Positions 23,001 to 40,352 of a DNA stretch of 64,000 nt are shown here, one piece after another (position 1 is the first letter of the stretch; the number at the start of each line of letters is the position of its first letter). The DNA is from Sphyrna mokarran (lineage: Eukaryota), in contig JAGIQG010000009.1 of assembly GCA_024679065.1 (NCBI GenBank), forward strand, positions 109,182,001 through 109,246,000, written 5' to 3'. The notes below the pieces were generated by a model. It worked only from the letters and a program-made list of their open reading frames with translations, ran no database searches and had not been told where the DNA came from. The position numbers were made by a program, and so were the translations under genes.

Positions 23001-23801
23001 TTTTCCTCTTCTTCCCTGAGATCTCTTAGTAATTGCTGTTCTCTTGCGGTGAGAATCTGGTGCATTTTTTTGAATTCAGATGTGATGTGGGTCTGCAGAC
23101 TGCTCGACTGTTCCTACCCAATGAAATGTGAAATATAATTAATGTCCCGCGATAAAGGGAACAAAACTAACCGAGATCCCAGAAAACCAGCACAGGGAGA
23201 CCTTACCCTAACTTCAGAAATCTTCCGTTTCTGATTCTGTGCTGTTTCGAGAACTGCCAATTTCTTCAACTTGAAAGAATTTATGGAAGGTTTCAGCTGA
23301 TCCTGGGATTGGAAGAGAAAATCACAGAATGAAAGTTTTAAACTCTAAAAGTATGATAGAACTATCAGATAAATAGTATTTCCCTTTTACCTTGTAAGTT
23401 TCAAAAGCTTCTTTAATGGGCAGGAAGTGGTGCTCTCTGTGTTCCCGCGAGTCTCTACAAATCAGACAGATCAATTTCTTGTCAGTTTCACAAAACAGCT
23501 TCAGTTCTTCCTGATGTTCCTCACAGTGAAATTTACTTTCCTTCTCTTTCGGATTCAGGTTTAATTCTCGAGCTTTCTCGGCCAGATTCGCTAAGGCCCG
23601 ATTTACCCTGAGGTTTCTTTCCGGAAACTCCTCTCTACATTCTGGGCAGGAGTTTATCCCCTTCTTTTCCCAACTCCGGATGATACAGGAGCGGCAGAAG
23701 TTGTGATCACATTCCAGGATTACCGGATCAGTGAAGAAATTGAGACAAATGGAACAAATTGCCTCCTTGAGCCAACTCTCTGCTTGTTGTCTGGAAGCCA
23801 T
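7459..23801 (-). CDS. TRIM-B30.2 E3 ubiquitin ligase (RING-Bbox2-CC-PRY/SPRY; TRIM39/RFP/A33/NF7-like), 6 coding exons, 476 aa
   Basis: Manual splice: 23801-23391 (411), 23302-23207 (96), 23113-22880 (234), 21539-21517 (23), 19417-19302 (116), 8009-7459 (551) = 1431 nt, open frame, all introns GT-AG. The 96/~231-234/23/~116 exon sizes are the typical class IV TRIM layout. Confidence 0.95.
8040..8960 (+). repeat. GA-rich low-complexity tract (polypyrimidine on the TRIM sense strand)
   Basis: About 900 nt dominated by purines on the + strand, adjoining the TRIM last-exon acceptor. Confidence 0.9.
10895..11190 (+). mobile_element. tRNA-derived V-SINE (HE1-like), representative copy
   Basis: Head ggtggcacagtaattagcactgctgcctca...gttcgattcc and V core gtgtggggtttgcacattctcccc...gggtttcc. 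Similar copies near 1, 20400, 21760, 26905, 27410, 32140, 35160, 38650, 49230, 53015, 54910, 57910 and 59345. Confidence 0.85.
11305..12215 (-). mobile_element. CR1 LINE 3' fragment
   Basis: LLQLYRALVNPQLEYCEQF...QQRFTRLIPGM and YFFTQRVVRLWNSLP. Confidence 0.88.
12240..13490 (+). mobile_element. CR1 LINE 3' fragment (same family as, and opposite in orientation to, 11305-12215)
   Basis: LLQLYRTLVRPHLEYCVQFW...RRFTRLIPG; CR1 tail ctcctatcttctatg. Confidence 0.88.
15030..16450 (-). mobile_element. CR1 LINE RT fragment
   Basis: VYLNFQKAFDKV, WVEDWLTNRKQRV, SDVPQGSVLGPQLF. Confidence 0.9.
16480..19030 (-). mobile_element. Decayed Penelope-like element (RT body ~16480-18430) plus terminal-repeat fragments (~18490-19030)
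   Basis: MGPSYAELFV and DKVPLVLTVHPTNLHIQRIILCNF are typical PLE RT and linker motifs; adjacent hammerhead-like repeats. Confidence 0.75.
19302..19417 (-). CDS. TRIM exon 5 (116 nt, linker before PRY)
   Basis: tttacag|GATTAGT...AAACCTG|gtaaaa; encodes ISEESEMLSGADVSLLIGKFRGPLQFTAWREMIKSIKP. Confidence 0.92.
21517..21539 (-). CDS. TRIM exon 4 (23 nt linker)
   Basis: tttctttcag|GAAGGAACTTGTCGGAAAAGGAG|gtaaga; encodes EGTCRKR(R) and restores the frame to exon 5. Confidence 0.9.
22880..23113 (-). CDS. TRIM exon 3 (234 nt, coiled coil)
   Basis: ggtag|GAACAG...CTAAAG|gtgagg; encodes EQSSSLQTHITSEFKKMHQILTAREQQLLRDLREEEEK...KDELIFLK. Confidence 0.94.
23207..23302 (-). CDS. TRIM exon 2 (96 nt, coiled coil)
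   Basis: cccag|GATCAG...GTTAGG|gtaagg; encodes DQLKPSINSFKLKKLAVLETAQNQKRKISEVR. Confidence 0.93.
23391..23801 (-). CDS. TRIM coding exon 1: RING (C3HC4) and B-box2
   Basis: MASRQQAESW...CSIC...CDHNFCRSC...CPEC (RING) and CEEHQEELKLFCETDKKLICLICRDSREHREH (B-box2). Ends YK|GTAAAA, phase 0. Confidence 0.96.
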
Positions 23802-23831
23802 GTTCACACTCAGCTCTTCCCGATTCAAACC

Positions 23832-23873
23832 ACTTTCAGTTTGAATGTTACTGATTCCTGAACACTTTAAATA
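23832..23873 (-). promoter_or_regulatory. IRF-E-like motif (TTCAAACTGAAAGT, 23845-23832) and TATA-like TATTTAAA (23873-23866) just upstream of the TRIM ATG
   Basis: AANTGAAA IRF core 31 nt before the ATG; 13/14 identical to the motif at 63674-63687. Confidence 0.4.
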
Positions 23874-24004
23874 CTGTGATTTCCTGATGAAGTTCACTAC
23901 AACAGTCTAAGAATTATTATTAAAAGCTATTTTACTGTCCTATCGACTTTTTCAGGGGCAGAAACAAAACCTGACTGTTTTGAAGGACAGAGAGGTTTAG
24001 AAAA

Positions 24005-37109: not shown

Positions 37110-37826
37110 CTCCCCCGCCCCCGCCCCCGCCCCCACCCCCCCTTCTCGCCCCCCTCCCCCCCCCCCCCCCCCCCCCCCCCCCTCCTCGCCCCCCCCACCC
37201 CCCCTTCCTCGCCCCCCCCCCACCCCCCTTCCTCGCCCCCCCCCCACCCCCCTTCCTCGCCCCCCCCCCACCCCCCTCCTCCCCCCCCCCCCCCCCCTTC
37301 CCCCCTTCCTCGCCCCCCCCCCCCCACCCCCCCTTCCTCGCCCCCCCCCCACCCCCCCTTCCTCGCCCCCCCCCACCCCCCCTTCCTCGCCCCCCCCCAC
37401 CCCCCCTTTCCTCGCCCCCCCCACCCCCCTTCCTCGCCCCCCCCCACCCCCCCTTCCTCGCCCCCTCCCGCCCCCCCCCCCCCCTTCCCTCGCCCCCCCC
37501 ACCCCCCCTTCCTCGCCCCCCCACCCCCCCACCCCCCCTTCCCTCGCCCCCCCCACCCCCCCTTCCTCGCCCCCCCCACCCCCCCACCCCCCCTTCCTCG
37601 CCCCCCCCACCCCCCCTTCCTCGCCCCCCCACCCCCCCTTCCTCGCCCCCCCACCCCCTCCTCCCCCCCCACCCCCCCCTCCTCGCCCCCCCCACCCCCC
37701 CCTCCTCGCCCCCCCTCCTCCCCCCAATCCACTCCCCCTCGCCCCCAACCCATCCCGATCCCTCCCCCTCGCCCCCCCCCCAGTCCCGATCCCTCCCCCT
37801 CGCCCCCCCCCCCCCCCCCCCCCCCC
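37110..37826 (+). repeat. C-rich tandem repeat, (CnTTCCTCGCnA)n, ~22-24-bp unit
   Basis: Poly-C runs punctuated by TTCCTCG and A; explains the long Pro-rich and Gly-rich ORFs. Confidence 0.95.
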
Positions 37827-40288
37827 AAGTCCCGATTCCAACCCCAACCCCAACCATGGTGGCCTTGCCTTTATCTTCAGGCCCTAAACTCTGTATTCCC
37901 TCTTTCAACCGCCTCCCTCCCTGATTCACAAAAGTATTCCCTGAAATTTATCTCATTAAACAGGGAGAGAGAGGCCTGGGATTCTCTGTCCGATGTCCTG
38001 GGACGTTAATCATCCCTCAGCCAACATCACCAAAGACAGATTTATCTGACTAGGGTAGCAGTGCTGTTCGTGGGATCTTGCTGTGTACTGACGGACTTTC
38101 TGTACTTCTCTCCATGGGCCGCTCTCTCTGTTGAAATATGACAGGGTCAAATCGCACCCTCAGAAGACCTGAGCGCTCATTCTGCACTGCGGGAGTGCAA
38201 CACTGCCTTCTTTCTGAGGAAGTGGGAAACTGAGCCTCCCGCCTCCCAACATTCACCTCCCCCCAAACCCCATCAGTACGATCCCTAAAGCCATGATTTC
38301 AAAGGGGAGTTACCCCCAGTAAGCAAAACAGAAAATGCTGGCTAGAAGCAGCAGGTATGACTGTTTCTCTCTCCAGATACTGAGTTAACAATTGATTCCA
38401 ATGTAATTCTTCTGCAGAAGCGTCAAAATGTTAAGTTTGTATCTCTCTGTACAGATGCTGCCAGGCCTGAGTTGGGTATTTTCTGTTTTTATTCTAGATC
38501 TCCAGCATCCACAAGTCATTTATGTTTATTGTAGAATTATTCCCTGATCAATTTTTATCCCTCAATCAACATTGCAAACAAAAGGAGCAAATTATTAGGT
38601 TATCGTCACATTGTTCTGTTTGGGGTGTGAACAGACAAAATAGGAGCAAAATCATAGAGAACCTTCAGTGCAGAAGGAAGCCATTCGGCCCATTGAGTCT
38701 GCACTGACAACAATCCCACCCAGGCCCTATCCCCATATATTTACCCTGCTATTCTCTCTAACCTAAACATCTCGGGACGGTAAGGGCAACTTAACATGGC
38801 CAATCAACCTAATTCGCACATCTTTGGACTGTGGGAGAAAATCCACGCAAACACGAGGAGAATGTGCAAAATCTGCACAGACAGTGACCCAAGCTGGGAA
38901 TTGAACGCAGGTCCTTGGAGCTGTGAGGCAGCAGTGCTAACCATTGTGCTGCCCAGAAGTAGGCCAGACAGCCCCTTGAACCTATCCAATTAATAAGATC
39001 ATGGGTGATTTGTCTGTTTTTAGAATTCACATTTACTGCTGATATATCTTTGATTCCCTCCCCTGACAAGAATCAGTCTCCCCTGCCTTTAAAAGATTCA
39101 CCTTCCTCTGTCTTCTGAGGCTGAGAGTTCTAATGTCAAACACCCCCCAGAGAAAAAAATACCCCTCATCACCGCCTCCTAATTTTAAAGGTTCTGGACT
39201 CCTCACAAGGGGGAACATCCTTTCCACGTCCACCTTAGTGAGACCGTTCAGGATTTTATAGACTTTAATCAAGCCACTCCTCATTCTTCTAAACTGCATT
39301 GGAAACAAGCCCAGTCTGTCCAGCCTTTCCTCATAAGGCAAAGTACTTGTTACTTGGAGCTTGCGTCTGTGTTCCCGACCTGTACTGCCACCTGAATTGG
39401 CTTAATTGGCAGTAAAAACACTTTGGGGAAATCATGAGGTTGTGAAGGCTGCTTTAGAAGTAGGAATCATTCCCACACTGAGAATTGGGGGTCAGTAACT
39501 GAGGACTGGGGTGAGTGAGCATGAACTGACTTTACAAAATGGAAATGAAATATGTCAATAGCAATGAACGTAACACACTCTGTAGGAGCTCCTTAGACAG
39601 TACCTTCCAAACTCTTGGCCACTGTCATCCAGAGAGAGGAGGAACACCACCACCTGGAGGTTCTCCTCCAAGACACTCACCATCCTGACTTGGAAATGTA
39701 TTGGTATTCCTTCACTATCACTGGGTCAAAACCCTGGAATTCCCTCCCTAACGGCACTCTCGTTGCCCCTACACCCCAGGGACTGCAGTGGTTCAAAAAG
39801 GCAACTCACCACCACTTTCTCAAGGGGCAATTAATTTTTAAAGTTTATTTATTAGCGTCACATGTAGGCTTACATTAACACTGCAGTGAAGTTACTGTGA
39901 AAATCTCCTTCAGGAGGGGTAATAAATGCTGGCCTAGTCAGTGATGCCCATCTCCTAAAGATAAAGAAATCTAATAAATTCAGTCGAATATTCAGGAGAA
40001 ACTTACCCAGCGAGATGTGAGAATTTGGAACCTGCTTTAACAGGGTGTAGTTGAGGAGAATTGTGTGAATGAAGGTGAATTTGGATTAACGAGTGAGGGG
40101 AGGAGGAAGAGGGTGAGATAAAATAAAACAAGGAGGGTCATATCGAGCACAAATACCAGCCACAAACTGTCGGGCTGAATGGCCTTATTCTTTACTGTTA
40201 CTTAGATATGATTCCAAGGAGCGTTGAATCCTAATGGAAGCCTCTTATCTTTCAGGGCCTGCACTCAGGCTTCGGTGTTTTGCTGAGG

Positions 40289-40352
40289 ATGTCTGGGTGG
40301 ATGAAGCTCTGGGTCCTGTCTCTAATTCTCCTCCTTCATTCTACACTAACAG
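40289..40352 (+). CDS. Butyrophilin signal-peptide exon (exon starts at 40256)
   Basis: Encodes MSGWMKLWVLSLILLLHSTLT; acceptor tctttcag|40256; donor ACAG|gtgaga, phase 1. Confidence 0.88.

Follow-up and report, generated by a model that had tools for sequence, protein, structure and literature searches.

Separate candidate IRF sites at the gene starts of a TRIM-butyrophilin locus of Sphyrna mokarran

On contig JAGIQG010000009.1 of Sphyrna mokarran a TRIM gene with a B30.2 domain and a butyrophilin gene, here called BTN-A, lie head to head (positions 109,182,001 to 109,246,000; this whole stretch of 64,000 nucleotides is the window, in which all positions are counted). A perfect interferon-stimulated response element (ISRE) is found between the two genes at position 36488. 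Does this single element control both genes, and does the pair preserve an ancient arrangement linked with the major histocompatibility complex (MHC), as an earlier note on this DNA had proposed? Our analysis suggests a different answer. TRIM, BTN-A and a second butyrophilin, BTN-B, whose 5' end lies at the right border of the window, are probably each controlled by an interferon regulatory factor (IRF) site of their own, and the element at 36488 would be an ordinary proximal ISRE. The locus itself is an ordinary immune gene cluster, correctly annotated, in a gene region that is already known.

The window was searched for exact matches to the IRF-type 11-mer AAASYGAAASY. Three matches were found where 0.77 are expected, a number that was reached by 3 of 100 shuffled sequences. 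One match each is located in three 300-bp zones at the 5' ends of TRIM, BTN-A and BTN-B (0.04 expected; Table 1). Thus, a shared ISRE is unnecessary, and one IRF site per gene is the simplest reading. Several points weigh against it. The 11-mer was selected after one-mismatch hits had been viewed, and the motif at 63677 was spotted together with its donor site. Looser patterns placed 1/6, 1/4, 3/6 and 3/71 of their matches inside the 5' zones, the first value being that of GAAANNGAAA and the last that of AANNGAAA. An alignment of the BTN-A and BTN-B promoters gave nothing better than an E value of 0.19, that is, no likeness beyond chance. Moreover, the start sites and first exons of all three genes were derived from gene models of other species, which include fused predictions made ab initio. 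Because of the post-hoc choice of the motif and the less clean looser patterns, the distribution is therefore regarded as support and not as proof.

The motifs might also be something other than interferon switches. They could confer constitutive expression dependent on IRF1, IRF2 or IRF8 in immune or epithelial cells, or some of them, above all the one in the TRIM 5' untranslated region, could be due to chance. The element GAAAGCGAAACT is the only exact match to GAAASYGAAASY in the window, and 18 of 100 shuffles contain such a 12-mer (mean 0.19 per shuffle), so that taken alone it is within chance; the loose pattern GAAANNGAAA was matched 6 times in the window against 4.5 expected. The first G is missing from two of the three sites, and no SXY, kB or GAS element was recognized by crude patterns. 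In zebrafish only several btr genes are interferon-stimulated genes and many respond independently of the interferon receptor (10.1101/693333). Against this explanation, which we regard as rather unlikely, stand the positions of the three exact 11-mers, all of them at gene 5' ends, and the promoters of human BTN3A1-3. There, each butyrophilin paralogue likewise has a proximal ISRE with IRF1 binding (PMC11257985), and an atypical SXY element confers control by NLRC5 (PMC7753138). No SXY element was recognized in the shark promoters, and the human butyrophilins are class-specific and not orthologous to those of sharks (PMC12841164). The interferon control proposed in the earlier note is plausible for both genes; its single shared ISRE is not supported, as each of the three starts has its own IRF motif.

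How is the ISRE at 36488 placed with respect to the two genes? Its position between them is very lopsided, with 12,687 bp to the TRIM ATG and 3,790 bp to the BTN-A ATG. It lies at the left edge of a block free of self-repeats. The motif and the CpG-containing non-repeat block that had been described earlier are indeed present, but this block is a weak CpG island only (observed/expected ratio 0.64 and GC content 0.47 in 36501-37000). The number of CpG per 100 bp is 0-1 across 35900-36399 and 2-6 across 36400-37199; the increase is confined to the BTN side of the ISRE, with background level on the left. Plus-strand GT sites between 23850 and 40200 were joined to the signal-peptide exon and compared with the N-terminal extension of the bamboo shark orthologue model. 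In this test the donor at 36613 ranked first of 845, albeit with a narrow margin over the runner-up (score 31 versus 29), which weakens the assignment; by donor consensus it ranked second of 846. On the basis of these rankings and the BTN-sided CpG rise, an exact consensus ISRE stands 113 bp ahead of the donor that is probably the first of BTN-A. The rightward butyrophilin start near ~36500 postulated before is supported.

At the other side of the intergenic region, the weak acceptor at 23858 and the upstream motifs of TRIM itself, TATTTAAA (23874-23867) and AAACTGAAAGT (23842-23832), are present as noted earlier. The DNA adjoining this acceptor is homologous to the upstream extensions of two paralogue models, P0053 and P0086. 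The top intergenic match of the P0053 extension was obtained directly upstream of the acceptor (E 1e-4), and so was that of the bamboo shark P0086 extension (23901-23878, E 0.033), the weakness of the latter counting against it. None of the TRIM paralogue extensions matched the island better than E 0.15 in tblastn. The extensions were also inspected as a set of 21 rows, from which two rows of non-elasmobranch or unnamed origin and one fusion with a preceding C-terminus were dropped. Among the remaining 18 elasmobranch rows, 8 read [EKQ][ST]E[ST] at positions -14 to -11, compared with 14 of 127,978 in the background. This peptide, ETES in sharks and ESES in rays, is the translation of an in-frame ISRE, and the TRIM of the window reads likewise. 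Several points speak against such a footprint: a peptide does not reveal its codons, the rows share ancestry, conservation is just as high in the flanking residues, and 10 of the 18 rows, including the closest catshark copy, are without it.

If the ISRE at 36488 controlled both genes, it would do so either through a bidirectional promoter, whose leftward TRIM first exon would be spliced over 12.5 kb to 23858, or as an enhancer looping to TRIM. The head-to-head layout and the usable weak acceptor are in keeping with this proposal, as are the weak minus-strand donors at 36364 and 36337 and a CCAAT box on the minus strand, ~100 bp to the left of the ISRE, which would be compatible with leftward transcription. 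However, the best minus-strand donor of the block scores only 2.3 (rank 25 in 23860-37100); two real donors of the TRIM and BTN-A genes score as low. The CpG density left of the ISRE is at background, the TRIM extensions do not resemble the island, TRIM carries its own motif, and BTN-B has the same promoter layout without a facing TRIM. Bidirectional promoters have divergent starts within 1 kb. Here the coding exons of TRIM and BTN-A are 16.5 kb apart, and no CpG island spans both starts (GC 0.47-0.48, background CpG left of the ISRE). Since the island is one-sided and without a good minus-strand donor, and since a paralogous TRIM model runs through the acceptor site at 23858 into the adjacent DNA, the single shared ISRE of the earlier note appears decidedly unlikely. 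The sequence evidence is indirect and leans towards a local TRIM start; a far upstream exon is the less likely alternative.

Some further candidates for the TRIM 5' end were discarded. An upstream exon ending in ATGTGY near a donor gave two matches, both in repeat-like DNA and unconvincing. The paralogue P0136 was not supported by tblastn, neither as spliced upstream exon nor as contiguous DNA, and was not used. A metagenome scan with TRIM exon 1 yielded just 3 unrelated RING loci at 41-45%, which are useless for promoter comparison.

Is the pair part of an ancient MHC-linked arrangement? MHC marker genes, for which the earlier note had advised to look, are absent from the window, a point against an MHC position. 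The linkage is nevertheless supported through the orthologues on the MHC chromosome of elasmobranchs, according to which the locus very probably lies in the MHC. The sawfish MHC table of Verissimo et al. 2023 (PMC10751288) contains 11 butyrophilin-named genes and, in the 0.65-4.1 Mb part of chromosome 34, 30 A33/NF7/TRIM39-like names on both strands; the main text of that paper does not mention BTN or TRIM. The 120 TRIM matches listed include 5 sawfish proteins, each with a LOC identifier tabulated on this MHC chromosome. The sawfish BTN-A orthologue would also be located on chromosome 34, and the white shark orthologue on MHC chromosome 19. Published work places BTN genes of epaulette shark, white shark and a stingray on the MHC chromosome and describes a class-specific BTN expansion (PMC12841164), and TRIMs of the RING-B-box-coiled-coil-B30.2 type near the MHC were proposed to be ancestral (PMC3137616). 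In the human MHC and the chicken B locus, clusters of TRIM-B30.2 and BTN/BG genes likewise place both families on the MHC chromosome (PMC8813856, PMC3137616).

Within the MHC, the fused bamboo shark model P0016 has the order BTN-A, BTN-B, BTN-C. This order fits the sawfish triplet LOC127585924/925/921, which is located between atf6b/olfactomedin-like 2A and cyp21a2/tenascin-X in class III. The locus thus probably belongs to class III (ATF6B-CYP21A2) and not to the extended class I region with which the earlier note had compared it; in the white shark, gabbr1b is 13 Mb away from atf6b. The locus might instead lie outside the MHC in this species or in another BTN cluster of the MHC chromosome, which would be compatible with the other readings. 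Such a position would fit the lack of marker genes, the name of the sawfish orthologue, which fits three LOC rows, and the report that some shark BTNs, and in the elephant shark all of them, are off the MHC chromosome (PMC12841164). It is very unlikely in view of the gene order of P0016 and of the BTN-A orthologues, which share a contig with TRIM relatives in every named species.

The gene that faces BTN-A differs between species. The sawfish triplet is faced by olfactomedin-like 2A at 2.3 kb, and in the white shark one unnamed minus-strand gene at the corresponding place faces BTN-A. In the catshark the matching place holds 11 further unnamed genes, all directed away, the nearest start being 17.0 kb from the opposite-strand gene. 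This gap resembles the 16.5 kb between the ATGs of TRIM and BTN-A here and, like the presence of the closest TRIM lineage in carpet sharks too, would favor a shared ISRE, against which the probable sawfish orthologue with its facing olfactomedin-like 2A has to be set. The gene orders of white shark and catshark are based on unnamed LOC rows with deduced identities. The Mustelus accessions of the BTN model, of the closest TRIM (78%) and of one more TRIM follow directly on one another, and the TRIM and BTN identifiers of the epaulette shark are four apart. Adjacency of TRIM and BTN is hence indicated in Mustelus and compatible with the data for catshark and epaulette shark; in sawfish and white shark, as distant elasmobranchs, the probable BTN-A orthologues do not appear to be part of such a head-to-head pair. 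An apparent case in sawfish, LOC127585798 facing a BTN, was wrong, as LOC127585799 begins with a TRIM.

As olfactomedin-like 2A faces the probable BTN-A of the sawfish and probably that of the white shark, the TRIM-BTN pair appears not to be ancient. Nor are TRIM and BTN-A a matched pair, because their B30.2 domains are 36.6% identical and fall into separate clades. A recent B30.2 exchange between them is ruled out for the same reasons. The idea of a preserved ancient arrangement is not supported. We infer from the compared gene orders that, in some shark lineages, a TRIM array entered this gap or expanded there. Turnover of TRIM genes in the MHC region (PMC8813856) as well as btr expansion and B30.2 exon shuffling (PMC2657112) have been described.

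The identity of the genes was established from their exon structures and domains. TRIM runs leftward from 23801, in accordance with the earlier note, and consists of six coding exons with GT-AG borders on the minus strand (ATG 23801 to 7459), which encode 476 amino acids free of stops. Pfam domains RING, B-box, PRY and SPRY were detected. As to the putative coiled coil between B-box and B30.2, exon 3 alone is without a Pfam family match, and the full-length alignment to annotated family members is gap-free. The sequence identifies the gene as an intact A33/NF7-like class IV RING-B-box-PRY/SPRY gene of a large elasmobranch family, with 763 relatives at E <= 1e-40. These zinc binding protein A33-like or nuclear factor 7-like TRIMs of sharks and rays, by annotation related to btr/TRIM39, share the domain order and the six coding exons. 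Many of the paralogues are 70-78% identical to the TRIM of the window over the whole protein; its sole difference is a lineage-specific B30.2, which is 82% identical to the nearest Mustelus copy. Among the matches listed, the close relatives of both TRIM and BTN-A are from sharks and rays only, the nearest being from Mustelus. The protein would presumably act as an E3 ligase with the B30.2 selecting the targets.

To the left of TRIM, in 1-7400 of the window, no olfactomedin exon or other gene was detected. Two overlapping minus-strand open frames at 1049-1421, with a donor-like site near 1323, had neither a Pfam nor an Atlas match. The TRIM introns contain three further AAASYGAAA cores at 19537, 17331 and 10165.

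BTN-A comprises ten coding exons on the plus strand (ATG 40289 to 56973) and encodes 490 amino acids free of stops, which bears out the butyrophilin identity given earlier. Its signal-peptide exon was read from the sequence. It is followed by V-set (E 4e-14) and butyrophilin IgC (PF22705, E 7e-15) domains, a 120-bp transmembrane exon, five exons of 21 or 27 bp and PRY and SPRY in a single B30.2 exon. The top PDB matches of this B30.2 are BTN3A3 and BTN2A. The orthologue clade contains 12 rows of skate, sawfish and sharks (SH-aLRT 100; 11 rows by B30.2, for which a quick tree search was used). By sequence, BTN-A is a single one-to-one orthologue group that includes skate, sawfish and members of five shark orders. 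The BTN-A orthologues of the elasmobranch class III triplet have an ectodomain identity of 45-79%. The RefSeq "BTN1A1-like" orthologues P0004, P0005, P0017, P0149 and P0294 have an identical domain order and a tandem BTN-B behind BTN-A; the facing gene of the triplet is olfactomedin-like 2A there and TRIM here, and promoter motifs are undescribed in the papers searched. We take the butyrophilins to be surface receptors of the B7 family, probably heteromers. In the alignment of the BTN-A B30.2 to BTN3A3, several positions which we presume to form the phosphoantigen pocket differ.

For BTN-B, 63683-63811 matches the segment preceding the BTN-B signal peptide in a Mustelus model (E 4.5e-9), the only new non-repeat match from 295 proteins searched against the window. 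The stretch 63510-64000 is CpG-rich and promoter-like, with GC box, IRF motif and the probable BTN-B first exon. In carpet sharks, the B30.2 of the third butyrophilin (P0097, P0119, P0016 residues 1083-1264, P0150) falls among local A33-like TRIMs (SH-aLRT 98), and the ectodomain of this butyrophilin groups with an electric ray copy (95) whose own B30.2 is distant. The exon for this B30.2 appears to derive from an adjacent TRIM and to have taken the place of the former one.

The following repeats were observed in the window. The second intergenic CpG-rich stretch (28250-29000) is retroelement DNA, its peak being due to a CpG-rich retroelement piece with an A-tail at 28010-28940 that is nested inside another repeat. 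The intergenic region also contains a minisatellite (29187-29825, 32-bp unit x20 at 75%) and a 258-bp inverted repeat at 30747-31384 (99% complementary, 122-bp spacer), which is a recent duplication or an assembly artefact. Directly behind the promoter block, intron 1 of BTN-A contains ~720 bp that consist almost entirely of C, interspersed with CTCG units (37110-37826); this tract is prone to form G-quadruplexes on the opposite strand and may be partly an assembly artefact. Another BTN-A intron holds a minisatellite at 46876-47759 (46-bp unit x19.4 at 94%). An Rfam search of the window gave no match.

Table 1. Positions of motifs, exons and probable 5' regions in the window.
Feature	Position	Strand	Remarks
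IRF-type motif of TRIM, AAACTGAAAGT	23832..23842	-	30 bp before TRIM ATG
ISRE, GAAAGCGAAACT	36488..36499	+	113 bp before probable first donor of BTN-A
IRF-type motif of BTN-B, AAAGTGAAAGT	63677..63687	+	beside GC box (63664); 122 bp before probable first donor of BTN-B
Probable local TRIM 5' region	23858..23930	-	weak acceptor 23858, TATTTAAA (23874-23867), adjacent DNA
TRIM coding exon 1	23391..23801	-	RING, B-box; ATG 23801
TRIM coding exon 2	23207..23302	-	96 bp
TRIM coding exon 3	22880..23113	-	putative coiled-coil region, 234 bp; alternative acceptor 6 bp further in possible
TRIM coding exon 4	21517..21539	-	23 bp
TRIM coding exon 5	19302..19417	-	116 bp
TRIM final exon	7459..8009	-	PRY/SPRY (B30.2) and stop
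Non-self-repeat block	36139..37102		964 bp; probable BTN-A promoter and first exon, start of intron 1; 27 CpG, observed/expected 0.49, GC 0.48
BTN-A probable untranslated first exon	36520..36612	+	5' end approximate; donor GTAAGT at 36613
BTN-A signal-peptide exon	40256..40352	+	acceptor ending 40255 or 40268; ATG 40289
BTN-A IgV exon	41858..42202	+	
BTN-A IgC exon	44330..44608	+	PF22705
BTN-A transmembrane exon	46061..46180	+	
BTN-A five short juxtamembrane exons	46779-46805, 48882-48902, 50806-50826, 52492-52518, 54747-54773	+	heptad-type
BTN-A final exon	56432..56973	+	B30.2 and stop
BTN-B probable first exon	63695..63809	+	donor CAG|GTAAGT at 63810; remainder of gene beyond window

Taken together, the locus would represent the edge of an elasmobranch MHC B30.2 cluster. 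The A33/NF7-like class IV TRIM, which probably closes a TRIM array, is head to head with BTN-A, the leading gene of the tandem butyrophilins BTN-A and BTN-B. The ISRE at 36488 would be a proximal element of the BTN-A promoter, to which IRF1/2 or ISGF3 may bind ~100 bp before the first donor. Rightward transcription would then yield an untranslated exon, and splicing would join it to the signal-peptide exon over a distance of 3.6 kb. BTN-B would possess an equivalent site and TRIM its own site at the 5' end. All these genes may well rise together after interferon, by way of separate cis-elements, and the back-to-back layout would be a by-product of the insertion or expansion of the TRIM array.

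The linkage of shark BTN genes and of TRIM genes to the MHC and the ISRE in human BTN3A promoters are already published. No paper on promoters or induction of shark BTN or A33-like TRIM genes was found in the literature searched, which did not extend to subscription papers and included supplements of PMC10751288 only; the whale shark genome paper gave no whole-word match for TRIM, butyrophilin or B30.2. The pair as such is of little further interest, as TRIM-BTN neighbourhoods of this kind are numerous in the MHC of elasmobranchs. The remaining interest lies in the pattern of one IRF site per gene and its parallel to human BTN3A.

A wider reading, which we put forward tentatively and hold to be somewhat doubtful, is that in sharks and rays the B30.2 genes linked to the MHC make up an interferon regulon of separate elements, with a proximal ISRE for each butyrophilin paralogue and an ISRE fixed 30-41 bp before the start codon of the A33-like TRIMs. 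With the same reserve, the TRIM motif would be of the type GAA ACT GAA AGT in sharks and GAA AGT GAA AGT in rays, as back-translated from the peptides. If this were true, interferon control of butyrophilins, as it is known from human BTN3A, would date back to the ancestor of jawed vertebrates or would have evolved on two occasions, and the family-wide ISRE would mark the large A33-like TRIM expansion of sharks as candidate antiviral genes. Butyrophilins are known partners of gamma-delta T cells and have barely been studied outside mammals. As a modest hint, the motifs suggest that shark butyrophilins may be induced by interferon, and with ISRE-bearing shark butyrophilin promoters one could test at little cost whether interferon control dates back to the origin of jawed vertebrates.

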